From: a virus
DNA length: 64,000 nucleotides
Reading direction: 5' to 3' (one strand)
Virus record (IMG/VR): IMGVR_UViG_3300015371_000003
Span: 32,001 to 96,000 of that record
This document shows positions 18,101 through 37,516 of the stretch, piece by piece; the stretch's first letter is position 1, and every line of letters begins with the position of its first letter. The translations under genes and the position numbers were made by a program. The notes under the pieces are model-generated. The model searched no databases. It worked only from the letters and a program-made list of their open reading frames with translations, and was not told the DNA's origin.

Positions 18101-18276
18101 CCCTCATGAACTACGTGCCGGAGGATCGGGTGGATGAGATTGTGACGCGCCAACTGGACCAAATGGAATCGTTACCCTTTGAGAAAGTAGGTTGGCAACC
18201 TCAATTGACGTTTGTTGCGGATGCAAGAGTAGGAAAAAATTGGGGGGATATGACGAAATTCAAGAGGAAGAAATGA
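15085..18276 (+). CDS. polA: Family A DNA polymerase with 3'-5' exonuclease and an intein
   Basis: Exo motifs DLET, NFKYD, YAGGD; TGRLS; motif A DYGQGELR; motif B RQLGKAGNFGLCFG; motif C CHDS; probable start ATG 15085 after gggag. Confidence 0.92.
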   Translation: MLTIWTKGLPNKVLQAFSPVLRSVPHLPVHVVSDFTVPAGTKTILALGGDSLKQLQTEKVIAKNRTITAYRTLPQMRGGVPVLISYDSSIGEIDYGYHVDLLTDVTLAIRFCLTGNWKPAYGKYRYVPDFAELCTSIEQQHKATGKPVDVAKDLETLGLDPYALPSLNPLYPGAYIVTMQATHQAGTADVVRFSNREHETERLQDQTLREQIEFLLRCPYVRLKGANFKYDLHWLWKRGGFTCSTFCFDTTIVGSLLDENRSNSLDTHTKIYVPSLGGYADVFNATVDKSRMDQVPPDQLLPYAGGDVDADLQVAAAQKSELLRDKQLTSFYVNILHPAARAFEWVEQGGVLVDLPAFQELKADLEQEHQRLVKEACKIMGGRIVAKHGYMVDPGGFNLTKASMLCDFMFSPMGLNLKPQMYTAKPDKDGIKRPSTAMEHLEMFAEVPEAKAFVEIIREDSGVMKTYNTYVVGFLEHLRSDGRFHPTYYLFVGNRDDGEGGAKTGRLSCKAPAFQCCVGETEVVTNQGSRCIDWLVEQRGAGLHVLSHTGQWQPIVDVHRNGVQPVFRVSTVSGRAIDCTANHPLLTPVGWVRTDQLVVGDRCYVTRTPHATLHESDVLLVERDEESLLVEDIERLVQVWGAWDQSVPSVDDLRRLLEQHGREAGEGMVYRAERRKRELRTGQLLLGDIEGAGQQSSEYQMDYIREQDADRGAVGAGVRDFQRPVALPALDWPSDGASTDEDYPPDRSVFQEDCIVSIEPVGERETFDLTIEGSHSFIANGIAVHNTVPKHTKYAQRIRRCYPAPPGYVVVERDYGQGELRVIACVAHETGMLAVFKAGRDIHADTAAPFSGFTYEKLMALEATDPHTFEETRQLGKAGNFGLCFGMKEDGFVIYARVNYGVNLSWDEAHDFRNGFFKKYPQLLVYHEWAKSYARQHKFIRTPLGRLRHLPLIKSPNREVAAKAERQAINSPIQGCLTDMGLWTIALEQQSGLAEIAPCFGACHDSLMNYVPEDRVDEIVTRQLDQMESLPFEKVGWQPQLTFVADARVGKNWGDMTKFKRKK
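16630..17442 (+). mobile_element. Intein (271 aa) in the DNA polymerase
   Basis: AFQ|CCVGET… block A; TANHPLLT block B; FDLTIEGSHSFIANGIAVHN|T blocks F/G. Removal restores TGRLSCKAPAFQTVP. Confidence 0.92.
16895..17368 (+). CDS. HNH endonuclease nested out of frame inside the intein
   Basis: TYYSWSAMKNRC…YGGRGIKVCPQW..FEGFLNNMGEKP…SIERKDVNGNYEPGNCYWAT..EQ..NRR, a typical phage HNH family pattern, in the +1 frame relative to the polymerase. Confidence 0.8.
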   Translation: MSLGHRTQHYTSPTYYSWSAMKNRCLSKTSKDWSKYGGRGIKVCPQWMTFEGFLNNMGEKPGKGWSIERKDVNGNYEPGNCYWATLKEQGSNRRNTKWITFENKTQTEAQWAREYGISRGRLHYRLSIGLPMEQALMKTTRPTGVSSKKTASFLSNQ

Positions 18277-18662
18277 AGGGCATCCACAGCATGACCTTGG
18301 CAGAGCGAATCATAGCTAAGACTAAAGTGAACGAGAACGGGTGTCGGCTGTGGCAGGAGTCCTTACTGAAGGACGGCTATGCGCTGATTCGGTACAAAGG
18401 GAAAAAAATTACCGTGCATCGGGCGGCGTGGATGGCTTTCAAAGGTCCAATTCCAGACGGCATGTCGGTGTTGCATTCGTGTGATATTCGACATTGCACG
18501 GCTGAGGAGCATTTGTTTTTAGGAACCTATGCTGATAACTCGAAAGATGCTGTGACGAAAGGGAGACAAAAGAATTTATTTCCGAGTGGTGATCTGCATC
18601 CGAATAGGATTAAAAAACTCAAGAAATTGCAGCGGTTGACAAGACTGAGAGAGTTGGGTTAG
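18273..18662 (+). CDS. HNH homing endonuclease
   Basis: CRLWQ…GY…VHRAAWMAFKGPIPDGMSVLHSCD…HLFLGTYADNSKD; ATGA overlap with the polymerase stop; AT-richer DNA. Confidence 0.85.
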   Translation: MKGIHSMTLAERIIAKTKVNENGCRLWQESLLKDGYALIRYKGKKITVHRAAWMAFKGPIPDGMSVLHSCDIRHCTAEEHLFLGTYADNSKDAVTKGRQKNLFPSGDLHPNRIKKLKKLQRLTRLRELG

Positions 18663-21859: not shown

Positions 21860-23854
21860 ATGCTCAAGTTGACGGACGGCACGCCCCCCAAAGACACTCC
21901 TGAATCCAAGATTACCTTCATCCAGAAGGTGATCAAGGGTGAAACGTGGATGGTGATGGCGCACTCCGCCGTCGAATTAGAGGATGAGTTTTCCAGCCTC
22001 TATTACACGGCAGGGCAGCAGAACAACCTGTTCCTGATGCCCCCGTTCGAACCCAACGTCCTCCTGAACCTCGTCCAGACCAACAACATCCTCAACCAGT
22101 GCATCGAAGCGATGGAAGTGAACATCGATGGCACCGGGCATGAGTTTATTCCGGCGAAGGATAAAGCCTCCGACAAGTCCGCAGGAAAGCCGGGAGCCGA
22201 GGACAACGCTCCGGCACAGTCAGGCATTCCTCCGCCGACATCTTTTGGCAGCATCCGCAAACAGGATGCGACGGCGGATGACATCGATGAGGAGGAGAAG
22301 AAAGTAGCGGAGGGATTCTTCAAAGAACCCTATCCGAACACCTCGTTTGTGTCGATACGCCGGAGAATGCGGCGGCAGATGGAATCGGTGGGCTATGCGT
22401 TCCTCGAAGTACTCCGCAATGTGGCCGGGGACGTAGTAGCTATCCGGAACATTGAAACGCAGCATGTTCGCATGGTGAAGCTGGATGCCCCCATTCAGGT
22501 GAAGAAGAAGATTGAGCGGGACGGGAAAGTCGTGGAACTGGTGCTCTGGGAGCGGGAGCGACGATTTGCACAGACGGTGGCCCTGAAGCAGCAGGTGTAC
22601 TACCGGGAGTATGGGTCCACCCGTGAAATCAACCGGGAAACGGGGGATTGGGAGACGGACACCGAGAAGGTACCGCCGGAGAAGCGGGGATCAGAACTGC
22701 TGATGTTTGGGATCAATCCGGACGTGACCACCCCGTACTTCCTCCCCCGGTGGATCAACGAGTTACCCTCCGTCATCGGTTCCCGAGCGGCGGAGGAACA
22801 GAACCTGCAATTTCTGGATGCGGGTGGTCTGCCTCCGGCCATCGTATTTATCCAAGGCGGCACACTCATCAAGGACACCTCCGACCAACTCCGCATGTAT
22901 TTGTCTGGCCTGAACAAGAACAAGAACCGGGCGGTGGTCGTGGAGGTGCAATCCTCCAGTGGATCACTGGATGCGGCGGGCAAGGTGGATGTGAAAGTCG
23001 AGCGATTCGGTTCTGCCCAATCCCAAGACGCGATGTTCACCAACTACGATGAATCCACCGAGGAGCACGTGCGGATCGGCTTCCGGTTGCCCAAGATTTT
23101 TCTGGGGCGGGAGGAATCCTACAACTTTGCGACGGCACAAGTGGCCTACATGATTGCGGAGGCCCAAGTCTTTGGTCCGGAGCGGGAGGAGTTTGACAAG
23201 ATCATCAACAAGACGATCATCAAGGAACTGAAGCTCAAGACACTGGAATTCAAGTCCAAGCCCATTACCTTGAAGGATGTCACGTCGATTCTGACGGCTC
23301 TGGAATTGTCGGCACCGATGGCAACGCGGGAATCCTTCCTGAAGGAAGTGAATACGTCGGTGGGCACGTCGTTGGAACTGGCGGAAGTCCCGGCCCCGAA
23401 TGTGGCCCCCGGTCAAACGCCGTTGCCGAATACGCGGACCATCGATGAGATGCACCACGGTGAACTGCCCGCGTCTACCCAAACTCCGCAGATGACGGCT
23501 CCGCAACAGGAACCCAAGCCCGAGCCACCACCGAAGGAGACACACGTCATCCTGAAACCGGGGGATGAGATGCACCCAGTGCCCGCCAAGGATGAGACGA
23601 TTCGGGCTAAGCCGAAGGAGAAGAAGGCGGCGAGTGACATCCTGACGCTAGCGCAGGATTACGCCATCTATCAGGGGTTGATGCCCCAACTGGCGATCAA
23701 GCAGGAGTTGACCAAAGAGCGAGCGGATGCTATCAACGAGGAGCTAGACACGCTCCACCCGGATGATGTGCGTGTGTTCAACAGCCTGCTGGCGATGATG
23801 GTGTTTGGATCGGATGACGCGGATCTGTCCTCCGTGATTGCCGCCACCCGGTAA
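21860..23854 (+). CDS. Portal protein (PBSX/XkdE-like)
   Basis: PPFEP..L…CIEAMEVNIDG.G; GYAFLEVLRN..G; YFLPRW…QNLQFLDAGGLPP; QDAMF…IGFRLPKIFLG…YNFATA; first gene of the head module. Confidence 0.85.
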   Translation: MLKLTDGTPPKDTPESKITFIQKVIKGETWMVMAHSAVELEDEFSSLYYTAGQQNNLFLMPPFEPNVLLNLVQTNNILNQCIEAMEVNIDGTGHEFIPAKDKASDKSAGKPGAEDNAPAQSGIPPPTSFGSIRKQDATADDIDEEEKKVAEGFFKEPYPNTSFVSIRRRMRRQMESVGYAFLEVLRNVAGDVVAIRNIETQHVRMVKLDAPIQVKKKIERDGKVVELVLWERERRFAQTVALKQQVYYREYGSTREINRETGDWETDTEKVPPEKRGSELLMFGINPDVTTPYFLPRWINELPSVIGSRAAEEQNLQFLDAGGLPPAIVFIQGGTLIKDTSDQLRMYLSGLNKNKNRAVVVEVQSSSGSLDAAGKVDVKVERFGSAQSQDAMFTNYDESTEEHVRIGFRLPKIFLGREESYNFATAQVAYMIAEAQVFGPEREEFDKIINKTIIKELKLKTLEFKSKPITLKDVTSILTALELSAPMATRESFLKEVNTSVGTSLELAEVPAPNVAPGQTPLPNTRTIDEMHHGELPASTQTPQMTAPQQEPKPEPPPKETHVILKPGDEMHPVPAKDETIRAKPKEKKAASDILTLAQDYAIYQGLMPQLAIKQELTKERADAINEELDTLHPDDVRVFNSLLAMMVFGSDDADLSSVIAATR

Positions 23855-23856
23855 GA

Positions 23857-25373
23857 TGCCGACGCTCGATCTGCGGACGTATGTGCTGTTGGAGCGGGCC
23901 TTTGTCCGGAGGCTCCAACGGTCATGGCGGCAGCAGTCGGCTCCGCTGTACGCGAAGATTGCCCAAGCCTGCAACGACCACAAATGGGATGAAGCCCGCC
24001 GTCTTGTCACCGATCTGGACATGACGGAGGTCGGCACCGAGAACCGCGAGTGGATCACGTACATGCTCCGGTCGTGTGCCGTCTTCGGAGCCGGTACCGT
24101 CTCCAAGAAGAAACCGAGTTTCGTGGGCGTGGGCAGCTTCGATACCTTCCTGAAGCAGACCACGAACAATTTCCTGCAATACCTCGAATTGACCGCCACC
24201 GCTCAGATCCAAGCGGAAGCGTTGCAATCAATTGCCGAAGATGAGGCTAAGACCAAAGCCGCGATGTTGAAGGCGGCATGGGATGAATCCCAACACCCCC
24301 GTGACAAGGAAGGACAGTTCACGGAGGCCGGGGCCGGAACGGAGGCCAAGTCGGGGGATCCCGAAGGCAGTGGCCCCGCCCGTGTGGAATGGAACAAGCG
24401 CAACAAGGCGGTGATGGAAGCGACTGATGTCTATATTGACACCAGAGAAGCCCATCGAGCTTTAGTGGAGCGATTGAACGCTGAATATCAGGCGGAAACC
24501 CCGATGGGGTATCCAGAGGCCGGGTATGCGGCGTACAAGAAATCCCAAGCCACATTGGAGCAGGCCAACCAAGCGTTGGCACAGGCCGAAACTGCGCTGA
24601 AGCAACAAGAACCGCTGATGCGGAAGGAAATCGTCCAGAATCTGGCGACAGACGTAGCCAGTGATTTGGGCGTTGATCCACGTTTGATTGACGTGGTGGA
24701 CGAAGCTCCGCATCCGTTTACGGTTGGAGATAAGCAATTTACCGAGGCGGGGCACTACGATCCGACTACCAAACGCATTCAGTTGAATTCCAACAATATC
24801 TCGTATGCGAATGCCCCCGGAGTCAAGGGGGTGGTAGCCCATGAAATTTCTCATGCGATCTATCACCAGTTGAAGATTGCGGCGGAGGAGGAATTTCAAC
24901 GGTATCTCGTCAAAGCTACGACCGAGGATGCCTATACCCCGTGGTTTCATGAGCGGTTTACCACCGATCCCCATAAAATTGGCCGTCAGGTGAAGCCCGA
25001 GTACGCCAAGGAAATGGCCGAGGAATTTCCGGCGTCTACCGTGCTGGCCCGGTTGAGTGGGGGAGATATTTTCTCCGGTATCACTGATGAGATGATTGCT
25101 GAAAATGGGCATAGTCGGTATGCCAAATCGTACTGGGCCGCTGAAGCCGAGAAACGGATAGGGCTGCGGAATTACCGTAACGCCATCAATGAAACGATAG
25201 CCGAGATTACGCGGTGGTTGGCCTACCCCCGGTCATGGGAGGAGGAGAAGCCACCGGATCTGGATTCTCCGTGGGTCAAGTTGACAGAATCCATGTTGGG
25301 ATGGCATCAACGACAGCAAGCTGAACAGGCGAGGCAGTTTGCCGCGTCTTTGGCGTCGGGGTTCCGAGCATGA
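23857..25373 (+). CDS. MuF N-terminal half + tag + zincin (HExxH) metallopeptidase-like domain
   Basis: Helical head-morphogenesis-like N-terminus right after portal; LKAAWDESQHPRDKEGQF; VAHEISHAI…NETIAE. Confidence 0.6.
24279..24326 (+). repeat. Peptide-coding tag repeat WDESQHPRDKEGQFTE
   Basis: Near-identical peptide at 25550 and 27195, with mostly synonymous DNA differences. Confidence 0.8.
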
Positions 25374-27055
25374 TCCTGCCTGAACCTATCACCCTCAACG
25401 GTCGGACGGGTACCGTCGCCTATCTGGACGCGCAGTGGCATCCAGTCCCGGCGGATCAGGCGACGATGGCGCGAGTCCTGTTCGATGATGGGGGGACTGG
25501 TTTCTTTCAGGTGCAACCGATTGCCAAATCCACTGAAGATGCGGTAAAATGGGATGAGTCCAAACACCCCCGCGATAAAGAGGGGCAATTTACCGAAGGA
25601 GTCGGAGATGGACGAAGTGGTAAGACAACCCCGGAATCTGACAGAGGAGCAGGAGGCAGCGGAGGAGTTGGCGTATCGACGCCCCCCAAAGGGGTGGAAG
25701 CCGCAGGTCAAAAACGCCCCCCCGCCGTCCCCGAAGTCCAAGCCGTAGCGCGGGCGTATAACGCGCAGCACGGACTGCCCCCGGTCGAGCACGGCTATGC
25801 GACGGTGAATGAGGCCCGAGCAGGGGCCATTGCCGATGCCTATGACGCGCTTCCGGTGGATGATACGGATAATCCAGCGGTGCGGGAGGCGTATGCGGCC
25901 CTGAGTCGAGAGATTCAGGAGCAGTGGGATTTCATCACCTCTCACGGGGTGACGTTCGAACCGTGGACTGGAGAGGGACAGCCGTATCAGAATTCGCCGG
26001 AGATGGTGGCGGACATTCAGAAGAACCACCACCTGTATTTCTTCACGGGTGGGGAGCCGCATCCGTTGTTGGGGGCGATTGATCCGGCGACGGGGCTGTC
26101 CATGAACGACAAACTGCGAGCAGTCCATGACTACTTTGGGCATGCCGCAGGCGGCTATGGATTCGGAGCGAGAGGCGAGGAGAATGCGTGGCGGGCGCAT
26201 TCCCAGATGTTCAGCGCCCAAGCGAGACGGGCGATGACGACGGAGACACGCGGGCAGAATTCGTGGGTGAATTTCGGGCGACAGAACTACACGCCTGAGG
26301 GCATCTACAAGAATATTCCCGCCGCCGAGCGTCCGTATGCGGTGCAGAAGGTGGCGATTCTCCCCGATGTGTACGTGGTCTTGGAGCATGGTGGAGTCCT
26401 GAAATGGGAGGAGTCACAGCATCCACGGGTGCCGGGAGGGGAGCATGGCGGAGAGTTTACGCGAGTCGCCATTACGAGTCAGCGACCGGCGGATGACCCC
26501 GGCCATCAGACCAATCGGGAAGTGTTTGAGCACATGCGCGTGTTTGCAGGCCGATTGGCAGCCATCCCCGGCGTGACCAACGTGTCGGTGAAGCCCGGAG
26601 TCGGGGGGTGGGACGGCGGAGCCGAATCGATGTGGCAAGTGTTCTATCGGGGGAATGGTGAAGCTACGCGGTTGGTGGCGATGACGGCCAAGCACTTCAA
26701 TCAGGATGCGGTGTTGATCCTTAAGAAGTGTCAGGGTGGAGCGGATTGTCAGCCCGCTACGGAATTGCATTTCTCCAAGGGGATTGGCGGGAAGGTTCGT
26801 GTGGGCGTCGAGAAAGTACTGGTTGAGCATAAGATTAAGGGCTGGACGTGGATGAAGCGCGACGGACGGACCATTCTTCGAATGGTGGCGATTCCCGAAG
26901 AAGGGGATGATCCGGTCACGCATCAGCAGACGACAGCGGTGATTAGTCAGCAGTTGCGGGATAAGGGCTTGATGAACAAACGGCACGTGCAAAAGGTGGC
27001 CGTGAGTATGATGCGGCGTGAAGGACCAAACAGTTATGACCGAATCCTTGGATAA
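25370..27055 (+). CDS. Tagged two-module cargo protein (HDxxGH…EE zincin-like domain plus unknown domain)
   Basis: AVKWDESKHPRDKEGQF; RAVHDYFGH…GEENAW…TETRGQNSWVNFG; second tag VLKWEESQHPR…GGEF. Confidence 0.65.
   Translation: MILPEPITLNGRTGTVAYLDAQWHPVPADQATMARVLFDDGGTGFFQVQPIAKSTEDAVKWDESKHPRDKEGQFTEGVGDGRSGKTTPESDRGAGGSGGVGVSTPPKGVEAAGQKRPPAVPEVQAVARAYNAQHGLPPVEHGYATVNEARAGAIADAYDALPVDDTDNPAVREAYAALSREIQEQWDFITSHGVTFEPWTGEGQPYQNSPEMVADIQKNHHLYFFTGGEPHPLLGAIDPATGLSMNDKLRAVHDYFGHAAGGYGFGARGEENAWRAHSQMFSAQARRAMTTETRGQNSWVNFGRQNYTPEGIYKNIPAAERPYAVQKVAILPDVYVVLEHGGVLKWEESQHPRVPGGEHGGEFTRVAITSQRPADDPGHQTNREVFEHMRVFAGRLAAIPGVTNVSVKPGVGGWDGGAESMWQVFYRGNGEATRLVAMTAKHFNQDAVLILKKCQGGADCQPATELHFSKGIGGKVRVGVEKVLVEHKIKGWTWMKRDGRTILRMVAIPEEGDDPVTHQQTTAVISQQLRDKGLMNKRHVQKVAVSMMRREGPNSYDRILG
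25547..25597 (+). repeat. Tag repeat KWDESKHPRDKEGQFTE
   Basis: See 24279. Confidence 0.8.
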
Positions 27056-28232
27056 GGCGTTACAGGAATTGGAACAGCTTGTGGCAGAAGAAGCCGCGTC
27101 ATCGGACACGGGTGAAGATTTGCCAGAGTATGATCCGCTGCCTGAAGACGATGACGATGTGTCAGTCACGTTTCTGGCTGGTCCTGCGGTGAAATGGGAT
27201 CCATCCAAGCACCCGCGTGACAAAGAGGGGCAGTTCACGGACACCGTAGGCACCATCCGAGGAGTGGTTCGCACCACCGCTGAACAGGCCCGCCGGGATC
27301 TGGTCGCACTCGGGAAGAAGGTGGAGCAGTTAGACCACCGTCATGCGAAAGCCGCCGAGGAATCGCGGGTAGCGTGGGCGGCGTTCATGAAAGACGCACG
27401 GGAGCGGAAACGTCCCCTGAAGATTGACGGGGCGGCGGCGAAGAAATTGCCGTCCTACAAAGCCGCGCAAGCCGCCGATGCCAAGGTCATCGCCATTTCC
27501 GAGGAGACATCCCGAGTCGCCAGAGAAGTCAACAAAGAAGCGTTACGACAACTCGTGGTGCCGGAACGGGAGCGGTCCCTTGTGGAGTTTCTGGTTCCCG
27601 AGGGGCAATTGAATCCGGATCCACGGATTGAAGCTGGAATTGGCGACCACGCGAAGCGAGCGTTGGATGTCTTCCGCAAGTACGATGGGTCCGGGGAGTT
27701 GATGGGCGTCCCCATTCCACCGGGGAAAGAAGAACAGTTCAAAGAGATTTTTGGGGACGTGGAGTTTGAACATCTGCCGGATGGAAGTACGTGGGTGACG
27801 AAGAAGCTCCGGTTGACGCGGGCACCGGCTGGTGCGCGGGCCAATGCGTCGGCGTTTGGGGTACAAATTGGTGGGACTCGTGAGTTGGAGCGGACCATCT
27901 ATCACGAGGTGGCGCACCATGTGGAGTTTGCCAACTCGGACATTTATCAGGCCGCTGTGGATCTGCGGGCTTCGCTTGCCAGCGAGTCTACGCCCAAGTC
28001 CTTGAATGACTTGAAGGGCGTGGGTGGGTATGGACCCGAAGAAATTGCGCTGCCGGGAAAATTTCTCGATTCGTATGTGGGCAAGGTCTATCCGGAGGAT
28101 GCACGGGCCACAGAAATGTTGTCCACCGGGATGGAGTACTATCTGACGGACCCGATTCGATTTGCCCGAGAAGCCCCCGAGCATTTCAAGTTTGTGTGGA
28201 ACGTGATGCACGGGAAGTATCGGAGGAAGTAA
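27036..28232 (+). CDS. Tagged zincin (HExxH) metallopeptidase-like protein
   Basis: Acidic leader, AVKWDPSKHPRDKEGQF, IYHEVAHHVE…YVGKVY…TEMLSTGME. Confidence 0.65.
   Translation: MTESLDKALQELEQLVAEEAASSDTGEDLPEYDPLPEDDDDVSVTFLAGPAVKWDPSKHPRDKEGQFTDTVGTIRGVVRTTAEQARRDLVALGKKVEQLDHRHAKAAEESRVAWAAFMKDARERKRPLKIDGAAAKKLPSYKAAQAADAKVIAISEETSRVAREVNKEALRQLVVPERERSLVEFLVPEGQLNPDPRIEAGIGDHAKRALDVFRKYDGSGELMGVPIPPGKEEQFKEIFGDVEFEHLPDGSTWVTKKLRLTRAPAGARANASAFGVQIGGTRELERTIYHEVAHHVEFANSDIYQAAVDLRASLASESTPKSLNDLKGVGGYGPEEIALPGKFLDSYVGKVYPEDARATEMLSTGMEYYLTDPIRFAREAPEHFKFVWNVMHGKYRRK
27192..27242 (+). repeat. Tag repeat KWDPSKHPRDKEGQFTD
   Basis: See 24279. Confidence 0.8.
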
Positions 28233-28459
28233 TGGTGGAAGTCGAAGTGTACGGCGAACGAGCACGGTGCCAAAACGGGGTGTGGACGGCGGAGAGTCAG
28301 GCGCTGACGGATCTGCTGAACGCTCCGTGGAATCAGCCGGATGCCTTCCGGTATCGGCTGGATCCGGATATCGATGCGGCGGAGCACGTCGTGAAGACGA
28401 TGGGCGCACAGGTGATTTCCACCGAACCCCCGCCCACTGAACCCGGCGTGGTGTACTGA
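28232..28459 (+). CDS. Small acidic protein (candidate partner/immunity protein)
   Basis: TAATG-coupled to the zincin gene, SD ggagg, 75 aa. Confidence 0.55.
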   Translation: MVEVEVYGERARCQNGVWTAESQALTDLLNAPWNQPDAFRYRLDPDIDAAEHVVKTMGAQVISTEPPPTEPGVVY

Positions 28460-28472
28460 CGAAACCTTAGGA

Positions 28473-28490
28473 GTTGCACTTGAGTGCAAC
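28473..28490. promoter_or_regulatory. Perfect inverted repeat GTTGCACT-TG-AGTGCAAC (operator-like)
   Basis: 8-bp inverted repeat in the gap before the kinase gene; related boxes occur elsewhere. Confidence 0.6.
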
Positions 28491-28502
28491 GGAGCAACGC
28501 CG

Positions 28503-30311
28503 ATGCGGTCGTACCGAGACATTCTCCGGGGGGCATTGCGTTACGTCCACATCCTCAAGTGGGATGAGTCTAAAATTCACCGTAATCCTGCCGGGAGTCC
28601 GGGTAGTTCCGGGGGGCAGTTTGCGAAGATGGGGATGCGGGGGAGTGCGTATGGCACGGCTCCGGTGCCCTCCTCTGAAGCTATTGCCCGTATGCCAAGT
28701 GGGGCACCGGAAGCGATGGCCCACATGCGACGGGCGGGCCTGATCGCACAGCAGGATCGGGAGAAGTATCAGGAATTAGCCGCAGCGGAATCCCAAGCGG
28801 TGCGTCAAGGCGGCGGCGTGGCCGGATGGCGGTCGAGGGATAAAGCCGCAGAGCGGTACAAGGATGTGCTGATCAACCGCCCCCGTGCGGAGAATTTCGA
28901 ACCACCTCCTCCCCCACCCCCAGAACCCACACCAGTACTCACGTCTGGCAGTGCCACCAGTGTCGTGAAGAAATTGGGCGGCAGTTCGAATGCCTGCTAC
29001 GTCGTCCAGATGGAGGATGGTTCCAAAGCCTTCTTCAAACCGGAAGCCGGGGAGACGTGGGAAGCCGGGTTCTGCAACAACGACATTTCCACCTACATCA
29101 CCAATAAAGACTTTTCACTGGCGGAGCGGGAAGCCACCGCACATGAAGTGTCTATCGCGTTGGGGTTTGGGGAGTTGGTGCCGGAAACCCATCTCCGTGA
29201 ACACTTCGACGTGCCGGGGATCGATCTAGCCACCGATGATGAATCCGGCGGCGGTTACGATGAAGACTACGTGCGGAGCCTCTACAACCAGTACCATGAA
29301 AAAGCCCAAGAAAAGGCTTTTGATGAGGCTGGTGAGGAGATGGCGAATCAGTACTATGATGCTCAGCAGGAGCATTTGAGGGATGTCAAGAATCGCGCCG
29401 AGGAAATGACGGATATCTGGAATGAGGTAATTAAGGAATTTCCAGATGGTCCGGACTACGGATCACAGTCGGCGTTGCAAGAACATCCTCGTCTCCCGCT
29501 TGGGTCACAGCACTTCAGCCGCCCCCCGCAGGTCGGGGTGGTTGATCCACTGGACGTGTTGAAAGAAGCGGATGTGGACATCTCGGCGGCGATGAACAAT
29601 GAGGAGCGAGAACGGGTTGCGGACGTGTTCCGTGATCGGTTGAAAGCCGGTCATCAGGAACTAGGCGATGTGGACGAGGAAGCCGCCAAAGACGATCTGG
29701 ATCGGGATCAGTGGTACGAGGATCACCAAAATACCGAGGCACGGTTAATCGAAAGCAAAATTCAGTCGTTTGATTCGTGGCGGCATAGTCAGGGTTACGA
29801 CAGCGGCGATCAAGGAGGGGGCGGCAACGTCTTCAAGAATTCCGAGGCTCCTCATCCTCACGGCGGATCCCTGCAACGGTGGTTAAACAGCGGAGGCCGC
29901 GATGGGGATATGACCCATGAGGAGGCCACGCAATTTGCGGTGCTCGATTATGTGTTGGGCACGATGGATCGGCACGGCAACAACATCATGTTCTCCGGTG
30001 GGAAAGCCTACGCCATTGATAACGGTTATGCCTTCCCCGGCCCGGATACGCCCGATGGGTTTACTTACCGGTCAGATGCCGTACGGGAGTGGATGGGGGA
30101 TGACCAACACCGCGAAGTCCCCGAAAGCACCCGGAATGAAATCTTGGGAGCGATGAATCGGACGGACTGGAAAGCCTTGGTAGACCGTCACCCGAGCATG
30201 AGCCGGGAAGAACGGCAGTCGTTTCTGGACCGGGTGGACAAGATGAAAGAAGCCCTGTCCTACGCCGAGGGGTTGTCCACCCTCTGGCATGACCAGCAAT
30301 TGATGTATTGA
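28503..30311 (+). CDS. Tagged PI3K/PI4K/HipA-like kinase with a large acidic insert
   Basis: YVHILKWDESKIHR…GGQF tag; GGSSN…KAFFKPE; EREATAHEVS…VPET; LDYVLGTMDRHGNNIM…AIDNGYAF. Confidence 0.8.
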   Translation: MRSYRDILRGALRYVHILKWDESKIHRNPAGSPGSSGGQFAKMGMRGSAYGTAPVPSSEAIARMPSGAPEAMAHMRRAGLIAQQDREKYQELAAAESQAVRQGGGVAGWRSRDKAAERYKDVLINRPRAENFEPPPPPPPEPTPVLTSGSATSVVKKLGGSSNACYVVQMEDGSKAFFKPEAGETWEAGFCNNDISTYITNKDFSLAEREATAHEVSIALGFGELVPETHLREHFDVPGIDLATDDESGGGYDEDYVRSLYNQYHEKAQEKAFDEAGEEMANQYYDAQQEHLRDVKNRAEEMTDIWNEVIKEFPDGPDYGSQSALQEHPRLPLGSQHFSRPPQVGVVDPLDVLKEADVDISAAMNNEERERVADVFRDRLKAGHQELGDVDEEAAKDDLDRDQWYEDHQNTEARLIESKIQSFDSWRHSQGYDSGDQGGGGNVFKNSEAPHPHGGSLQRWLNSGGRDGDMTHEEATQFAVLDYVLGTMDRHGNNIMFSGGKAYAIDNGYAFPGPDTPDGFTYRSDAVREWMGDDQHREVPESTRNEILGAMNRTDWKALVDRHPSMSREERQSFLDRVDKMKEALSYAEGLSTLWHDQQLMY

Positions 30312-30314
30312 AAC

Positions 30315-30343
30315 TTGACATATCCACCATTTGGTGGTAAACT
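30315..30343 (+). promoter_or_regulatory. sigma70-type promoter TTGACA-17-TAAACT
   Basis: Perfect -35 and TG-extended -10 between the kinase and the small downstream gene. Confidence 0.7.
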
Positions 30344-30363
30344 TACTACATGGGGGGTGTGTG

Positions 30364-30588
30364 ATGCACGTGGAATTGCTGGATGTTTCGTCAGGAAATG
30401 AGGAAGTGTACGGCACCGTCCGGATGGACAACGGACAGGTGGTAGTCGAAGGGGACGTGCCCGCCCGTGTCAAACGAGATATCGAATTCGAGCGGCGGCA
30501 CACCGATGTCGGGGACGAAGCGTTTCTTCTGCGCCTTGAACAGCGGGTGTTCACAGGCCGGTATCTGCGGGCGCGATTCGTGAAATAA
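30364..30588 (+). CDS. Small protein with its own promoter (candidate kinase antitoxin/immunity protein)
   Basis: 74 aa, immediately after the kinase gene. Confidence 0.55.
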   Translation: MHVELLDVSSGNEEVYGTVRMDNGQVVVEGDVPARVKRDIEFERRHTDVGDEAFLLRLEQRVFTGRYLRARFVK

Positions 30589-30594
30589 TCCCCC

Positions 30595-33500
30595 ATGCTC
30601 CGTATCCACCCGCCGAAGGTGCAACCCATTGCACCCTCCCTTCTTGAAGTCCTGAAGTTTGATCCGAGTGAACCTCGTGATCCTCACGGACGATGGACGA
30701 CTTTCGGCGCGTCCATTCGAGTTGGGGACCGAGAGATTGCCGTAGTCAAACCAGCCCGCGCCAGAGACGATCAACTGGTCCCCCTGAACGTCGTCGCATT
30801 TGATACCGAATTTCAGCGGGAGCAGGGGTTTTATCTGGGCGTCGGTGGAATTGGGGGGATCGGCACCCGCTACCAACGTTTCGGGGACTTCATTGCCTCT
30901 CATGACAGCATCGAAGCGGCGGAAGTGTCCGTGCAGGAGAACGGGCGCGTGGGTTTCACCAACGGACGCCACCGGTATGCGTGGCTCCGTGATCAAGGAT
31001 TGACCACCATTCCCGTAGCCATGACCCCGGAGTCAGTCAGGAACGCCAAGAAGCATGGGTATCTGGCGGCGGTCAAGCTGGCGTGGGATGAGAGCCAACC
31101 TCGTGACGCTAAAGGACGGTGGGCAAAAGGATCAGCAGAACCTCCACCAGTCGGTCCACGTATTGGATTTGTGGGGCCGGATGGGAAGGAGCATGTTGGA
31201 CGTAAGACGGGGGGATTAGGAGGGTATTCCGAAGATCACACGGACACGGCTCGCCGGTTACTAGATAAGGAATACTCCACGGCACTGAGTCAGGCGCAAG
31301 CACGTGGTGGGGATTACCCAAATGCCATTCGTTTGATGTTGGAACAAGGAGCCATTCGGTATTGGGTGCGGAACGGGGAGATTGCGCTGCATTTTCAAGC
31401 AGGCCACCCAAAGACCGTCGAACACGTCATTCAATTTCTGCATGACAATTTTCAGGATGGGGATCGCATTTATATCGACATCGAAGGGGCCGAACCGCAT
31501 GTGCATTTTTTCGATAATGTCGGAGCCGCGAATCGTACTATTCGTCAGACAAAGCCACTCAAGAAGGTGGCGCAAGAGCATTCCTACGGCAACACCCAGA
31601 TTCAAATTGCTCCGACCAGTGCCGCCGCACTTTCTCTGAATATGGCCCGTGCTGCCATCCGCGATGAACATTGCATGGCAACCGGCAAGGATGTGGATCC
31701 GAACCATGTGACGGTGCGCTTCGGCCTCCTGAACGATGATCTGGATGGTCTGCGGTCGTTTATTGTCCGTCAACAGTCCTTCGAAGCTGAGGTCGGAGAG
31801 ATTGAACTATTCCCGGCCAGTGAGCACAGCGATGGAGCCGTGCCCGTCGTGGCCCGCATCGTCAGTCCCGAGTTGCATGCCATCGAAGCGGAGATAGGGC
31901 AGTATGCCGACTTCAAGGATAAGAATTTCCCCGAGTACAAACCCCATTGCACCCTTGCCTACGTCCACCCGGACAAAGCGGATTACTACCGTGATCTGTT
32001 CGTCAACGGATCGTTCGTGGTGCAGAGCATTACCATCAGTCATGCCTCCGGGGTGCAGGAGACGATCCCCTTCGGGATGGCCCAGAAGTGGGACGTGACG
32101 AAGCGGGATGGCAAGAGCACCCGCTTTCATAATCGTCCGCATTGGGCCGAGAGCCTACACCCACGTCAGCCTGCGGGATCTTCTCGCGGCGGCGAATTCA
32201 TGTCCACGTTGCATGGTCCTAGAGATGCGTTGGATTCTCTGCTCAACAAAGAGAAGAACGTCAGCATTGACCGGAATGATGTCCGTCGCTTTCTCGAATT
32301 AGCCGGGGAGCAACTGGAAGATCCGGACCTCACCGATTTGCAAGTCGAGGGGATGGAGATTTTTGGGGGCAATGGTCTGGGCATCAAACGTGATCAGATG
32401 CCGCAGATTCCCCGTGAGCATCGGCAACGATTTTTGAGAGAGTTGGTGGCGGCGGGTGTCAAGATTACGGAGGAGTCCGTCGATCCCCTCACCCTGAAAC
32501 CCACCCAGAAGGAAATCTCCGCCCGCCGGGTGATGGAGAAGATTACCAAGTACGAAACCAAGAACAAAGCCTTTCCTCCCCTCCTCGTCTCTCTGGATGA
32601 CCGAGTATTAGACGGCCATCATCATTGGGGCATGATGGCGGCATTTGCGCTGGATGTACCGGAGGCCAAGGTGCCCATCTTCCGGTTGCACATCAAGACC
32701 AAAGCCGCCTTGTCCATGATGCACGCTTACATGCGAAAGCACCACATCAAGCGGGCGTCGATTACCGGGGAGAAGATTGCAGCGGATCCAGTCACAGGAC
32801 GCTACGTTACACCTTTCGTCTCTTTCGAAAAACAAGGCGATGAACAACTCCGGATGATCGCCAGTCTCAATTCCAGCCGGTTGGCGACGTGGGGATTCAC
32901 GGCAGAGGCCGAAGTCTTGGGGATGGCCCGGTACAAGTTGACCGCTGTACTGGACGGTCGCACCAGCAAATTCTGCCGGATGATCAACGGACATATCTTC
33001 GACGTGCCGGATGCCCGCCGCAAGGTGATCGAAGCCCTGAACGTCCAAGACCCGAACGACTTGAAGACGGTGCAGCCGTGGCCCAAGCAAACCAAGGAGG
33101 CGATGGCTGAGTACGCCAAGATGAGTCCACAGGATTTTGTGGATCGGGGACTGCACATTCCTCCGTATCATCCCCACTGCCGCACGCTCCTCCGCCATGT
33201 GCAATCAAGTGCAGGGAAAGCCACCGAACCTCCGGTCCCCACCCTCCCTGATGACACCGAGGTGTTCCATCCGATCACCCAAGCGGACTTGAAAGAGTTG
33301 GGGGTGGAGGCCACGCCCGAAGAAGTTGCGTGGTGGAACAGTCAGATTGGGATGAGTCCCACGGAGTTGATCGCCAAGCTCACCGGCATGCCGCCCCAAG
33401 AAATTCTGACCAAGGGCAAAGGCATCGGAGCCAATCCTATTCGCTTCGATGAGGGGGGCGCGGGGAACATCGGCGTCCGAGCCAGAGGCGAACTACCGAG

Positions 33501-34002
33501 CGGCGTGGAATTCGCCATGGGCGCGATTCTCGATCCGTTCACAGGCATTTTCTACTTGTCAGAAGCCGCACTGGAAGTCGGAACACCAGCGGCAGAAATC
33601 TCGTTTCTCAAGAATCTGTTCTCGGAGATGATCAATACCGGCCTTCGCACGTCAGCGACCGAAGTGGCGGTGGGCGTGGCCGGGAATGCGGCGTATTATG
33701 CGAAACTCGGTTTCCTCCCCGATGATTTGGAGTGGGAGACGCTACGCACGCATACGTTGACGGAGCTAGAGAGCGGTGGATTGCAGGAGATGTTTCAGTC
33801 CTTGGCCCCGCTGGATCAGGAACTGGTGAAGCATCTGTTGCAGGATCAATCCGCGTCAGCCCTTTCCGCATTGGTGGATCTGCCATTCACCTACGAAGGC
33901 CGTACATTCGGAGAGTGGATGCTGGAAGATGCGGGCGGGACGTGGGGATTGGATCTGACGGATGAGGCGGTAGTGAACCAAGCGAAAGCCTACCTGTCAT
34001 GA
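30595..34002 (+). CDS. Polyvalent minor head protein: tag-ParB-like, tag-unknown, 2H phosphoesterase, tag-ParB/Srx, MuF domain, GNAT-like C-terminus
   Basis: NGRHR; HVTV…PHCTL (2H); LKPTQ…LDGHHHW; TAVLDGRTSKFCR…PPYHPHCRT (MuF/SPP1 gp7); AYYAKLGF. Confidence 0.75.
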   Translation: MLRIHPPKVQPIAPSLLEVLKFDPSEPRDPHGRWTTFGASIRVGDREIAVVKPARARDDQLVPLNVVAFDTEFQREQGFYLGVGGIGGIGTRYQRFGDFIASHDSIEAAEVSVQENGRVGFTNGRHRYAWLRDQGLTTIPVAMTPESVRNAKKHGYLAAVKLAWDESQPRDAKGRWAKGSAEPPPVGPRIGFVGPDGKEHVGRKTGGLGGYSEDHTDTARRLLDKEYSTALSQAQARGGDYPNAIRLMLEQGAIRYWVRNGEIALHFQAGHPKTVEHVIQFLHDNFQDGDRIYIDIEGAEPHVHFFDNVGAANRTIRQTKPLKKVAQEHSYGNTQIQIAPTSAAALSLNMARAAIRDEHCMATGKDVDPNHVTVRFGLLNDDLDGLRSFIVRQQSFEAEVGEIELFPASEHSDGAVPVVARIVSPELHAIEAEIGQYADFKDKNFPEYKPHCTLAYVHPDKADYYRDLFVNGSFVVQSITISHASGVQETIPFGMAQKWDVTKRDGKSTRFHNRPHWAESLHPRQPAGSSRGGEFMSTLHGPRDALDSLLNKEKNVSIDRNDVRRFLELAGEQLEDPDLTDLQVEGMEIFGGNGLGIKRDQMPQIPREHRQRFLRELVAAGVKITEESVDPLTLKPTQKEISARRVMEKITKYETKNKAFPPLLVSLDDRVLDGHHHWGMMAAFALDVPEAKVPIFRLHIKTKAALSMMHAYMRKHHIKRASITGEKIAADPVTGRYVTPFVSFEKQGDEQLRMIASLNSSRLATWGFTAEAEVLGMARYKLTAVLDGRTSKFCRMINGHIFDVPDARRKVIEALNVQDPNDLKTVQPWPKQTKEAMAEYAKMSPQDFVDRGLHIPPYHPHCRTLLRHVQSSAGKATEPPVPTLPDDTEVFHPITQADLKELGVEATPEEVAWWNSQIGMSPTELIAKLTGMPPQEILTKGKGIGANPIRFDEGGAGNIGVRARGELPSGVEFAMGAILDPFTGIFYLSEAALEVGTPAAEISFLKNLFSEMINTGLRTSATEVAVGVAGNAAYYAKLGFLPDDLEWETLRTHTLTELESGGLQEMFQSLAPLDQELVKHLLQDQSASALSALVDLPFTYEGRTFGEWMLEDAGGTWGLDLTDEAVVNQAKAYLS

Positions 34003-34175
34003 TCAAAGTGAAACCGATTACTTCCCACCGAGCAGGACCGGCCATCAAACCACTGGTGACGGTGCCTGCCAAGCCTCCGATGGTGAAGCGGTCCTATCAG
34101 CAATTGGTCACGCGACAGAACGTCCCTCCCGAGAGAGCCATATCTCTCCTGTTGAGCTTGCCTAGAGAAAAATAG
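33999..34175 (+). CDS. Small basic Pro-rich peptide
   Basis: ATGA-coupled 58-aa ORF MIKVKPITSHR…. Confidence 0.35.
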   Translation: MIKVKPITSHRAGPAIKPLVTVPAKPPMVKRSYQQLVTRQNVPPERAISLLLSLPREK

Positions 34176-34236
34176 TTGTTGCCTCTCAACCGGTCCTGTA
34201 AAATAACGTGCAATCAGTTGCACCGGGAGAGCCACC

Positions 34237-34755
34237 ATGCCCCTACATACGACCGGATTGACTTCGCGGCACGACCTCGATCATCCGGACGAGAAACCTC
34301 CTGCGAAGGCCGATCCGCTGCCCTATGAACGGGTGTTGAAGTTCAACCCCAATCATGGGCCGGATGGCCGGTTCACCTCCGGCGGTGGAGGCCGCAGAGG
34401 TGGGACGGAAGGTCCACCGCGAGTGGGAGCCTTCGGGCAGAAGCTGTCTCCGGCGGAGGTTGAGTTTCGGGTTTCTCGCCCGAAAACATATCAAGATCGA
34501 TTGAAAGGTTCAGCGGCACGAGCCGCGAATGATGCGAGGCTGGATCGACAGCAGGCGGAAGTCGCCCGTCAGCAACAAGAATCTCTCGCAGAAGCAACAA
34601 GAATTATTTCTGGAGTGACCTATGCCTCAGCGGGGCGTCAAGCATCGGCCCGCCAGATGCTGAGCAATGCGAGTCTTGCGACTCGTGCGACGACTACCAC
34701 GCACACGGGTTCGATGGTCGGAGGTGTTCCCACCAAGCGATCCACTTTCAGCTAA
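34237..34755 (+). CDS. Tagged basic hypothetical protein
   Basis: MPLHTTGLTSR leader; YERVLKFNPNHGPDGRF. Confidence 0.6.
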   Translation: MPLHTTGLTSRHDLDHPDEKPPAKADPLPYERVLKFNPNHGPDGRFTSGGGGRRGGTEGPPRVGAFGQKLSPAEVEFRVSRPKTYQDRLKGSAARAANDARLDRQQAEVARQQQESLAEATRIISGVTYASAGRQASARQMLSNASLATRATTTTHTGSMVGGVPTKRSTFS

Positions 34756-34767
34756 GGGATTCGGGTC

Positions 34768-35073
34768 ATGCCCATCACTTCCGGGTTTACTACCCGTGCC
34801 GCCGCCGCCGAGAAAGGCGAAGGCCATATCCACACGGATAAGTGGCATCGCTGTATTGAGCACGTGAAAGGCAAAAGCAGCGGCGTCGATCCCTATGCGG
34901 TGTGTACCCACAGCATCGGATATGCGGGATCGGTCAATCCTGAACATCGGACGGAAGGACGCCATGCGTCCGCGAATCCCAAGCGGTTCAAGACCAAAGA
35001 AGGCCAGCGAAGTGCCCGTGCCCGTGAGAAAGCCGCGAAACAGTCCTATGCGGAAGTCCTGAAGTTCAAATAG
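34768..35073 (+). CDS. Small basic protein
   Basis: MPITSGFTTR leader; KWHRCIEHVK…PYAVCT; ends in YAEVLKFK. Confidence 0.6.
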   Translation: MPITSGFTTRAAAAEKGEGHIHTDKWHRCIEHVKGKSSGVDPYAVCTHSIGYAGSVNPEHRTEGRHASANPKRFKTKEGQRSARAREKAAKQSYAEVLKFK

Positions 35074-35076
35074 TCC

Positions 35077-36153
35077 ATGCCGATTACGGAAGGCTTTACC
35101 ACACGGGGGATGGTCGCCAAAAGTGGCTACTCGTGTGTCGGTCCCCCCAAGCAAGGGCACATGGAGAAGCGGGGGCACCAGAAGAAACGGAAAGCCGCCT
35201 CCTATCTGGGGGTGTTGAAGTTTGATGAAAGTGCGGTCAATCGCCAACCAGCGGGTGCTCCCGGTAGCAAAGGCGGAGAATTCGCCCCGAAAGGTCAAGG
35301 ATTTAAGGGGAGTACCGGCAGCAGAACTGGTAAAGATTTGACGCCCGCTCAGCGAGCCATGCAGCGGACGTTGAAGGAACAGAGCCGCAAGCGCATCCAT
35401 AAAGTGGACACCCCCGAACAAGGGGTGGCGCTGATTCTCAAGGGCGAACGGGTGGAATTACGGGACACCAAAGATGTTCACACGGTCCTCAAAGAACTAG
35501 GCGAGATGGCGATCAAAGCCAAGGAAGCCTGTGGCGGGAAGGAACCGTGTGAAGGCGTCCCCAATTTCGATCCCTGTCTGGTGACGGTCAAAGGCACCAG
35601 CTTGTTTTGCTCTGAAAAACTCAAAACGAAAGAATTTCCTCACGGGATTCCGCGTATTGAGATGCCGCAGTTCAAGTCCAAGAATCCCGTGCCGGGGAGC
35701 GAAGCCGATAAACTGCCCCGTGATGCCAACGGAGAAGTGGATGCTACGGATGCGTTTCTCAAGCATCTGGATGAAGCAGGTGTGAAAACAAATTCGTATG
35801 ACACCGTGCTTGCCCGCAAATTGAAGGCGAGTCAGGCGGAGATGGAAGGCGCGAAAGTCGCCGCCATGATGCTGTCGTCACGGGATCCCAAGAAAGCCCG
35901 TATTGTGGTGTCGGCAGACAACTACGTGGTGGATGGGCACCACACGTGGGCCGCGTCGGTGGGCCGGGATGCTGAGGACGGCAATCTGGACAACGACAAA
36001 GAAATGGAAGTGGTCCGGATCAATCTGCCGATGTCCGACATCTATCAGTTGGCGGTGGAGTGGACCAAGACTTTTGGCATGCCGCAAGCCGGTATCAAAA
36101 AGCGTGATTGGTTGAGGGCTGTGCTCACCTTCGGGCAGGCGTCTCTCAACTGA
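35077..36153 (+). CDS. Tagged ParB/Srx-like domain protein
   Basis: MPITEGFTTR leader; YLGVLKFDES…GGEF; GIPRIEMPQF…LKASQ…IVVSADNYVVDGHHTWAA. Confidence 0.7.
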   Translation: MPITEGFTTRGMVAKSGYSCVGPPKQGHMEKRGHQKKRKAASYLGVLKFDESAVNRQPAGAPGSKGGEFAPKGQGFKGSTGSRTGKDLTPAQRAMQRTLKEQSRKRIHKVDTPEQGVALILKGERVELRDTKDVHTVLKELGEMAIKAKEACGGKEPCEGVPNFDPCLVTVKGTSLFCSEKLKTKEFPHGIPRIEMPQFKSKNPVPGSEADKLPRDANGEVDATDAFLKHLDEAGVKTNSYDTVLARKLKASQAEMEGAKVAAMMLSSRDPKKARIVVSADNYVVDGHHTWAASVGRDAEDGNLDNDKEMEVVRINLPMSDIYQLAVEWTKTFGMPQAGIKKRDWLRAVLTFGQASLN

Positions 36154-36164: not shown

Positions 36165-36905
36165 ATGCCAACAAGACAGGTACTGATTCAGGGCATCATG
36201 ACGTGGGATGAGCCGACACAGCCTCAGCCCCCGAGTGGTGCTCACCCGGAGCATCCGATCTTCTATCCACCGGGGATCTGGGGACCGACCGATCCTCGTC
36301 CTTCGAATCCGATTGCCAACGTTCCCGGTATCAGCAATCCCAATCCTCCGGGGTGGGGTCAGCGACCGGAACATCCCATCGTGCTGCCTCCTCCGGGTGG
36401 TGGCGGTGGGACTCCTCCGGGGATCTGGGGGGGAGGCAATCAGCCGTTCCCCACGCCCCCGATTGCCAATGTGCCGGGGATCGACAATCCCAATCCTCCG
36501 GGCTGGCAACCGCCGGGGATCTGGGGTCCACCGGGACCGTGGCCCACTCCGCCGATTGCGTTTCCGCCCGGATGGGTAGGAGGCGTACCACCCGGTGGGG
36601 GGACTCCGCCGTCCGGTGCTCATCCGGAGCATCCCATCGTGCTGCCGCCGAACGTGCCGCCATCAGGACCGGGAGGTCCGAGCGGAGGCGTTCCGACGCA
36701 TCCCATCGGTGGGGTGCAAGGTCCAGCCGGGATGTTCGTGTGGTACTGGTCCCCGGCATGGGGGTGGTTCGCAGTGCCTGCGAGCGGGCCGATTCAGCCG
36801 CCGCAACAGCCACCGACGCAGCCTCCGACCGAGCCGCCGTTACCGGGAGATATTCCGCATCCGGAGCATCCGATTGTGCTGCCGCCGGAAGCGGAGCCGA
36901 AGTAG
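36165..36905 (+). CDS. Pro/Gly-rich repeat protein
   Basis: PEHPIxxPP x4, PGIWG x3, PIANVPGIxNPNPPGW x2; SD ggag. Confidence 0.65.
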   Translation: MPTRQVLIQGIMTWDEPTQPQPPSGAHPEHPIFYPPGIWGPTDPRPSNPIANVPGISNPNPPGWGQRPEHPIVLPPPGGGGGTPPGIWGGGNQPFPTPPIANVPGIDNPNPPGWQPPGIWGPPGPWPTPPIAFPPGWVGGVPPGGGTPPSGAHPEHPIVLPPNVPPSGPGGPSGGVPTHPIGGVQGPAGMFVWYWSPAWGWFAVPASGPIQPPQQPPTQPPTEPPLPGDIPHPEHPIVLPPEAEPK

Positions 36906-36919: not shown

Positions 36920-37516
36920 ATGCCGAAACCAAAACACAAGGCACTCGTGATCAAGAACGAAGAAGCACAACTTGTGTTTGGGGAGGTGTACGCCCCGAAC
37001 CGTCCCGACGCGCAAGGTGAGTACATGACGGCCACGGACATTCAGAAGATGGCCCATGAATTCATCCGGTCAGGCAAGATGGGTCAGATTGATGTGATGC
37101 ACGGGAACAAAGTGGTGACGGGCGCGAGTGTGGTTGAGTCCTTCGTGGCGGATGACACGGATTCCCGCTTCCTGCCCGGTTCGTGGGTGATCGGTGTCCA
37201 CATTCCCGATCCTCAACTCTGGTCTGCCATCAAGAAGGGTGAAATCAACGGCTTCAGCATGGAAGCCTTGGTGACACGCCATGAGATGGATGTGGAAGTC
37301 GAAATTCCTCCGGTGGTCACAGGCTTGACCAGTAAGCATGACGATCATCAACACAAATTTTTCGTCGCCTACGACCAAAAAGGGGAATTCAAAGGCGGTG
37401 TGACGGATACGGTCAATGGGCATTTCCATGCGATTGTCGCCGGGACACATACTCAGGATGCCGCAGGCCACCGTCACCGCTTTTCTAGCGTTGATAACGT
37501 GCGGATTCTAGGGTAG
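36920..37516 (+). CDS. XkdF-like prohead serine protease with a His-rich tail
   Basis: LVFGEVYAPNRPDAQGE…IDVMH…VVESF…GSWVIG…WSAIKKGEINGFSME; C-terminal HxH repeats. Confidence 0.85.
   Translation: MPKPKHKALVIKNEEAQLVFGEVYAPNRPDAQGEYMTATDIQKMAHEFIRSGKMGQIDVMHGNKVVTGASVVESFVADDTDSRFLPGSWVIGVHIPDPQLWSAIKKGEINGFSMEALVTRHEMDVEVEIPPVVTGLTSKHDDHQHKFFVAYDQKGEFKGGVTDTVNGHFHAIVAGTHTQDAAGHRHRFSSVDNVRILG

Follow-up and report, generated by a model that had tools for sequence, protein, structure and literature searches.

A recurring peptide tag precedes the modules of a putative head-cargo island in a MuF-type tailed phage

To our knowledge, the choice of the proteins that a phage carries in its head and injects is understood for only a few model phages (T4, P1, and N4). 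The IMG/VR virus record IMGVR_UViG_3300015371_000003, a 116,229-bp genome of an uncultured phage with direct terminal repeats and a completeness rating of 100%, contains a locus that bears on this choice. In its bases 32001–96000 (the window, 64,000 nucleotides, whose numbering is used below), eight open reading frames (ORFs; 23838–36153) between the portal gene and an XkdF-type prohead protease gene encode a series of unrelated domains, and the same short peptide, here called the tag, recurs ahead of them. Why should unrelated modules share one peptide? An earlier note on this stretch regarded the locus as a candidate new system. Instead, the island fits the known phage-type polyvalent proteins and the MuF- or portal-fused effectors (PMC5512222), and its gene content identifies it as the putative head-cargo island of a MuF-type tailed phage, organized as a polyvalent protein array. 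The apparently undescribed feature is the widespread tag, probably a label of capsid-borne proteins.

A six-frame scan of the whole record detected 11 full copies of the tag, all on the + strand and within real ORFs, with their first aromatic residues at 7680, 24279, 25550, 26405, 27195, 28560, 30658, 31084, 32143, 34342, and 35221. A half copy, YAEVLKFK, forms the last residues of the ORF at 34768–35073 (ORF K), and the scan found no further copies in the genome, in agreement with the earlier count of about 12. The statement that all but one lie between the portal and the prohead protease also holds: 10 of the 11 full copies and the half copy are found there, and the copy at 7680 is the single outlier. 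A stricter pattern, derived after the copies were seen, occurred 0.16 times on average and at most once in 50 codon shuffles. Pairs of tags have 12–13 of 14 residues in common but only 5–8 identical codons, and the longest nucleotide run common to any two tags is 13 nt. Since the residues are kept while the codons diverge, selection acts on the peptide, as had been proposed from differences at synonymous positions. The tag is a real element, selected as a peptide.

A profile built from the 11 copies was searched against 1.84 billion representative proteins, as the earlier note had suggested, and matched 970 cluster representatives at E ≤ 1e-3, of which 165 remain at E ≤ 1e-10. Large proteins with 3–21 tags make up most of the matches. 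Statistics on 664 tags in 149 proteins define the core as [WFY]-D-[EP]-S-[QK]-(H)-P-R-...-G-x-[FW], in which W, F, or Y invariably occupies the first position. The P-R pair is followed by two or three variable residues or by P-x-G-S-x-x-G-G, and then by G-x-[F/W], resulting in a short form of 13–14 residues and a long form of 17–22. The residue before the aromatic is K in 34% of the tags, A in 19%, D in 15%, and E in 13%, and G also occurs. The tags are spaced by a median of 258 aa; the first is located at a median position of 60. In 95% of the proteins, 131 aa or more separate the last tag from the C-terminus, and no tag is close to a C-terminus. The domains in the tagged proteins include ART-PolyVal, MuF, Acb1, GNAT, TopoIB, NUDIX, and Zeta, and no conjugation markers were found among them. 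A narrow DNA pattern of the tag gave 55 matches in the GTDB species-representative genomes, spread over many phyla (including Desulfovibrio, Neisseria, Mannheimia, Microbacterium, Clostridia, Bacteroides, Planctomycetes, and Melainabacteria), and further matches in IMG/VR. As judged from sequence, the tag core is a pan-bacterial feature of MuF-type phages.

Other searches returned little. The short tags gave four weak tblastn matches in cultured phages, where short-query statistics are limiting, and a homologue search with the tag region alone retrieved two proteins owing to a word-index limit. The island had no megablast match in the phage collection. Among the phages checked, the tag is absent from Mu, SPP1, Acinetobacter phage ABMM1, and the polyvalent protein of Helicobacter pylori phage SwA626G. 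A 113-aa tagged ORF from a bin assigned to Escherichia coli matches nothing in complete E. coli genomes or in phages, and its contig was therefore probably mis-binned. No tag-like model or description was found in Pfam (with 40-residue tag pieces), in NCBIfam, in the PDB sequences (with the tag profile), or in the literature searched, including the full text of PMC5512222; this is an absence in the reachable sources and not proof, and the tag is apparently undescribed. The family is probably wider than the counted HPR form, since record L006 carries the variants KGNPYHDDAGKFTT and KINPYRDEEGSYTT at the usual tag position (L006:4780–5835 and L006:9765–11039). The giant protein P0010 (7334 aa, 21 tags), which has the highest tag count in the profile search, shares a 409,570-bp NCBI contig with P0016 (5313 aa, 17 tags), and many tags of both proteins have a second conserved piece, DPKDPRI.FS, just ahead.

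The proposal that the tag opens modules is borne out in this island and in its relatives. Solo ORFs open with MWDESKHPR, MPWDES, or MTWDES; since many start with MWDESKHPR, the tag can evidently work as a bare N-terminus. The 10 residues following the tag are 20% Gly, against a background of 8.9%, and contain few hydrophobic residues, while the residues preceding it have an ordinary composition. In the AlphaFold2 model of the ORF at 30595–34002, all three tags fall in segments with predicted local distance difference test (pLDDT) scores below 50 (residues 1–32, 161–220, and 496–536), and the flanking domains score above 80–90. The tag is thus predicted to sit in low-confidence linkers between confident domains. 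Together with the Gly-rich residues that follow, this placement indicates that the unit consists of tag, linker, and domain. The same unit recurs in several architectures, namely portal fusions in other tagged phages (portal-tag-PBECR1 and portal-tag-ART), a leader-tag-LPD3-DUF2213 arrangement, solo tag-PBECR or tag-PBECR1 genes right after MuF, and long polyproteins.

The association of the tag with MuF was evaluated on IMG/VR records of at least 28 kb, this genome included, with controls drawn by an arbitrary DNA pattern under the same size cut. MuF (PF04233) is present in 43 of 50 tagged records but in only 6 of 43 controls (Fisher 9e-13), and in 19 of 21 tagged records compared with 1 of 18 controls when records at least 90% complete are considered (Fisher 6e-8), P values that overstate independence because the tagged set holds groups of close relatives. 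Applied to the 43 controls, the tag profile had a single match, in a record with MuF, where a small ORF that separates MuF from DUF2213 carries the tag. These results support the view that the tag belongs to a head-cargo context comprising portal and MuF.

The MuF gene of this phage has been stretched and split. Its N-terminal part (module A, 23838–24278) begins the first cargo ORF; the core and C-terminal domain (32800–34002) form the end of the fifth, while in simpler relatives module A, the 2H domain, and the MuF core are held in a single protein of 700–800 aa. In all relatives, the gene after the portal begins with module A. The C-terminal 416 residues (720–1135) of the ORF at 30595–34002 have 48 homologues, mostly on contigs of about 100–117 kb, whose N-terminal arrays vary widely, with 2H/Acb1, ART-PolyVal, GNAT, and TopoIB among them. 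The comparison indicates that one ancestral post-portal MuF minor-head gene, consisting of module A, 2H, and a C-terminal carrier, expanded and was split into eight ORFs by effector cassettes, about 8.5 kb in all.

The gene order is kept in nine IMG/VR relatives, matched through their portals at 70–73% identity. We compared the cassettes among relatives at the tag boundaries, as had been suggested, and found differences there. Some orthologues of the zincin ORF at 27018–28232 start 8–9 residues ahead of the tag; others have an additional tag-ART cassette, or a different tagged module, on the upstream side. Cassettes F and G form one ORF (1,714 or 1,739 aa) in L007 and L011; in L009 and L012 each is an ORF by itself, with a short leader and a tag of its own. 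The presence of cassettes V, X, and J also varies, domain J being found in L007 and missing in L011. These differences indicate that cassettes have been gained, lost, fused, and split at tag boundaries. The exchange unit in the evolution of the arrays would be tag, linker, and domain, translated singly or in a chain.

What, then, could the tag do? The reading we favour, at a probability of roughly 45%, is that it is a two-part address label for capsid-carried proteins, with a lineage-specific protease site just upstream of the core. The residues before the aromatic, which vary by lineage (here phi-x-x-V-L-K), would be the site at which the head maturation protease frees the module in the procapsid. 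The invariant core would then stand at the new N-terminus on a flexible linker and act there as a docking, retention, or ejection signal, possibly via the MuF/portal complex. Polyproteins, portal fusions, and tag-initial solo genes would all yield the same product, an effector with an N-terminal tag.

Several observations hint at cleavage. A portal-fused effector must be cut loose before injection, and at the joint nothing but the tag is conserved. In a Mu-like lineage, the flank A(Q/M)DAE/W (the slash marks the boundary before the aromatic) precedes tags and is also repeated three to four times in the C-terminal, scaffold-like part of the DUF2213 protein, where the core is missing. ORF K and its L006 orthologue (L006:9445–9762), which ends in FVDVLKFGV, both stop one or two residues after ...VLKF. 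The scaffold-like protein of the window contains five [VILAT][LFM]K motifs against 1.5 expected (P ~0.02), a weak excess. Two resemblances were noted besides. The Pro-rich C-terminal tail of the portal contains THVILK/PGDE (23549–23566, residues 564–569), which resembles the local tag flank. The second cargo ORF ends in SYDRILG (27040–27055) and the prohead protease in NVRILG (37499–37516); these similar tails could represent a second, C-terminal capsid-binding signal.

Other observations weigh against the favoured reading. No single flank is universal: the aromatic can follow K, A, D, E, or G, and one large lineage has ...DAE/W. A cut after Lys, which the earlier note had inferred, is not supported as a general rule, given the 34% share of K, this lineage, and the MWDESKHPR solo starts, which have no upstream sequence. 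The AQDAE evidence is drawn from a single group of closely related phages; in other lineages the resemblance is only a looser one, and exact flank k-mers were not found in their scaffolds. The head protease or scaffold-like families that occur with tags are diverse (XkdF in 7, DUF2213 in 27, S78 in 4, and Mu-like in 1 of 49 records), and the DAE flank is found alongside XkdF as well as DUF2213. Co-variation of the flank type with the protease family was accordingly considered and set aside as not clean. An hhalign comparison of DUF2213 with XkdF, with very thin alignments, showed no relation, and DUF2213 is for this reason not called a protease here. Two of the 21 complete tagged records show no MuF and none of the four protease families. 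The tagged outlier at 7659–8192 sits among early or metabolic genes and not among head genes. Furthermore, the invariant 14-residue core is far longer than a protease site needs.

A broader version of this reading, which we consider doubtful, would make the tag a universal portable cargo address of MuF-type phages: a lineage-specific protease site plus a core read by the MuF/portal complex, enough for loading any protein and for its exit with the DNA. If true, MuF, a head protein that is very common, would function as a cargo adaptor. If the tag is shared by hundreds to thousands of phage proteins across bacterial phyla, it would provide a sequence handle with which candidate injected effectors could be listed in any phage genome, would open loading and release to direct tests, and would suggest a role for MuF. 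Among the candidates would be anti-defence enzymes, for example ADP-ribosyltransferases (ARTs) and Acb1-like 2H phosphodiesterases.

The same data can be read without cleavage. The tag may be a linear docking motif, never cut, that tethers modules non-covalently to a procapsid partner (MuF, portal, scaffold, or DNA), the polyproteins remaining intact. Such a motif would account for a core that is invariant while its flanks vary, for tags at the extreme N-terminus with nothing upstream, for the Gly-rich linkers and low-pLDDT segments, and for the strong MuF association. However, portal-fused and 7334-aa forms are hardly ejectable uncut, modules already fused to MuF or portal need no tether, and the flank motifs recur in scaffold-like proteins; we consider docking alone somewhat unlikely. 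Cleavage could instead be performed by the cargo, the tag being the cut site of its own zincin metallopeptidases (MPTase), in the head or after injection. The island encodes two HExxH zincins, one of them Pro-Pro endopeptidase (PPEP)/lethal-factor-like with a long peptide cleft, the tag contains a conserved H-P-R, and MPTase processing was proposed by Iyer et al. (2017; PMC5512222). This explanation is improbable, given that HExxH occurs in only 52 of the 150 best multi-tag proteins, that small Mu-like phages (portal-tag-PBECR1; MuF then tag-PBECR) show no zincin in the loci read, and that the cis tag is not confidently placed in the AlphaFold2 model.

A role outside the virion has also been weighed. 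The core may bind a conserved bacterial factor, or it may set the stability or timing of the module after injection, for example through an exposed aromatic N-terminus. The core is nearly invariant even among phages from widely separated phyla, which have no conserved head proteins; this would suit a host target, as would the strict W, F, or Y at the first position. There is, however, no clear reason for unrelated enzymes to need the same host contact, the acidic residues at positions 2–3 seem ill-suited to the known bacterial N-degron reader, and the close association with MuF and head genes speaks for a function in the virion, so that a host-directed motif seems quite improbable. Finally, the earlier note had considered the tag as a recombination joint for swapping cassettes; in this reading the tag would be kept as DNA homology. 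The exchange of cassettes exactly at tags agrees with this, but the tag codons have diverged around nearly constant residues, the longest common run is 13 nt, and the conservation is at the peptide level across phyla. The recombination joint is largely refuted by this synonymous divergence and is scarcely credible. N-degron and 2A-like ribosome-skipping readings were considered as well and found no supporting evidence.

The two-part address label has partial counterparts among known peptides. The capsid targeting sequence of T4 internal proteins, a stretch of about 10 residues that gp21 cleaves off after L/I-x-E, occurs once per protein and is known only from T4-like phages. Like the tag, it is a short N-terminal peptide on unrelated proteins, and it directs them into the prohead in connection with head-protease cutting. 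In contrast, the tag has 13–22 residues, is internal as well as N-terminal, is repeated in polyproteins, occurs in many phyla, and would be retained in the proposed model. It also falls outside the T4 type in its sequence and in the protease of this phage, which is XkdF-type and not gp21-type (S77). The inner-body and head proteins of phiKZ are cut by gp175 at S/A/G-x-E. If cleavage occurs as proposed, the two cases would have in common many head-internal proteins and a short recurring prohead-protease site; unlike the tag, however, the phiKZ site has three residues, is not known to have a conserved downstream core, and is known only from one lineage. Encapsulin cargo-loading peptides, which load cargo into an HK97-fold shell, are short, bind the shell, and are usually C-terminal. 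They resemble the tag as short peptides on a flexible linker, but the sequences are unrelated and the tag lies ahead of its domain. The junctions of polymorphic toxins (VENN in CdiA, PxxxxDPxGL in Rhs; Zhang et al. 2012, PMC3482391) also place a conserved peptide at the border of swappable cassettes. Their sequences are unrelated to the tag, and each precedes one C-terminal toxin.

The island itself most closely resembles the phage-type polyvalent proteins, which have been proposed to be packaged into the head and injected together with the DNA (Iyer, Burroughs, Anand, de Souza, and Aravind 2017, PMC5512222; also PMC9503650). Both have unrelated enzyme domains in strings (zincin MPTase, ART, ParB, 2H, and kinase) beside virion genes, along with MuF or portal fusions. 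As in that class, the island combines at least two unrelated effector domains in one polypeptide, a location among virion genes with MuF, and a zincin MPTase-type hub domain. It differs from the published examples in that the array extends over eight ORFs and each module is tag-prefixed, a peptide that the text of PMC5512222 does not mention; some polyvalent proteins, such as that of SwA626G, have no tag. MuF polymorphic toxins (Jamet et al. 2017, PMC5576092) consist of an N-terminal MuF followed by one C-terminal toxin and are accompanied by an immunity gene. A MuF head protein carries variable effector domains in both cases. Here, however, many effectors are N-terminal to the MuF core and the MuF gene is split across ORFs, which places the island outside that class.

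All the genes concerned are on the + strand, in the order portal, eight cargo ORFs, Pro/Gly-rich repeat ORF, XkdF-type prohead protease, scaffold-like protein, and capsid protein. The portal gene (21860–23854), with a weak Pfam Phage_portal match, forms the left edge of the island. The first cargo ORF (23838–25373) encodes module A, a tag (24279–24320), and a zincin with the motif HEISH, supported by weak Zn_peptidase_2 and SprT matches. The second (25370–27055) consists of a short leader, a tag (25550–25591), domain J (phrog_3170), another tag (26405–26458), and a second domain. The third (27018–28232) comprises an acidic leader, a tag (27195–27236), a coiled coil, and a zincin with the motif HEVAH. 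In its AlphaFold2 model (pLDDT 78), VIA-align matched residues 183–404 to Pro-Pro endopeptidases (Z 8.9 and 8.5) and to anthrax lethal factor (Z 8.2), which suggests a PPEP/lethal-factor-like fold over about 140 residues; Foldseek gave no significant match for this model. The island therefore contains two HExxH zincins and not three as previously listed, and the Pfam MPTase-PolyVal model has no match in it.

The fourth cargo ORF (28503–30311) has a 19-residue leader, a long-form tag (28560–28622), and a PI3/PI4-kinase-like domain, whose Pfam PI3_PI4_kinase score (3.7e-8, above the cut-off) upholds the earlier kinase assignment. The fifth (30595–34002, 1135 aa) combines PFIN/ParB-like, 2H, second ParB-like, and MuF domains in one polypeptide. 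Its first part contains a tag (30658–30696), the ParB/PFIN-like domain, a tag (31084–31122), a weak domain, and the 2H phosphoesterase, as assigned with Pfam, PHROG, and Foldseek. The 2H domain predicted earlier is supported by Pfam (5e-6) and by Foldseek matches to cGAMP phosphodiesterase, LigT, and Acb1 (2e-5). It is followed by a tag (32143–32199), a ParB-like domain, the MuF C-terminal core (residues ~750–870; Pfam 1.8e-3 and PHROG head families), and a C-terminal carrier domain. The sixth (34237–34755) has a leader, a short variant tag, FNPNHGPDGRF (34342–34374), and a low-complexity tail. ORF K (34768–35073) is small and His/Cys-rich and terminates in the half tag (35056–35070); its first residues (MPIT.GFT.R) are common to the leader of the next gene. 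This eighth ORF (35077–36153) has the leader paralogous to ORF K, a long-form tag (35221–35283), and a ParB-like domain with a DGHH motif (phrog_2859, 1e-17). The three ParB/Srx modules listed earlier thus find counterparts in ParB-like modules, with weak evidence in each case (PFIN 5e-4, ParB-N fold 1.4e-3, and DGHH motifs). The protease (36935–37516; Pfam Peptidase_S78_2, 4e-24) forms the right edge; its real start is near 36935 and not at 36353, and its L006 orthologue has 196 aa. Between the last cargo gene and the protease lies the Pro/Gly-rich ORF (36165–36905, +), with the repeats HPEHPI(V/F)(L/Y)PP and PPGIWG. It opens with ...IMTWDEPTQ, which bears a faint likeness to the tag.

The outlying solo gene (7659–8192, +) starts with MFAAVLK/FDPAQPRDAKGRW, the tag spanning 7680–7718, and continues with a YHGT module that is weakly ART/KptA-like. 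This is the sole ART-like module found; the earlier ART assignment survives in this form, on a weak KptA/Tpt1 match (E 0.003). The YHGT module lies inside the head island in the relative L009. The neighbours of the gene here are PPDK-like, dual-specificity phosphatase, and PolA genes of metabolism and replication. The adjoining region (8333–13406) encodes a PPDK-like/phosphoenolpyruvate-utilising enzyme and two dual-specificity phosphatase-like genes (PTP-SAK/Tc-R-P). Farther downstream (15016–18662), an intein (Pfam Intein_splicing, 1e-10) interrupts a family A DNA polymerase, and an HNH endonuclease ORF comes next.

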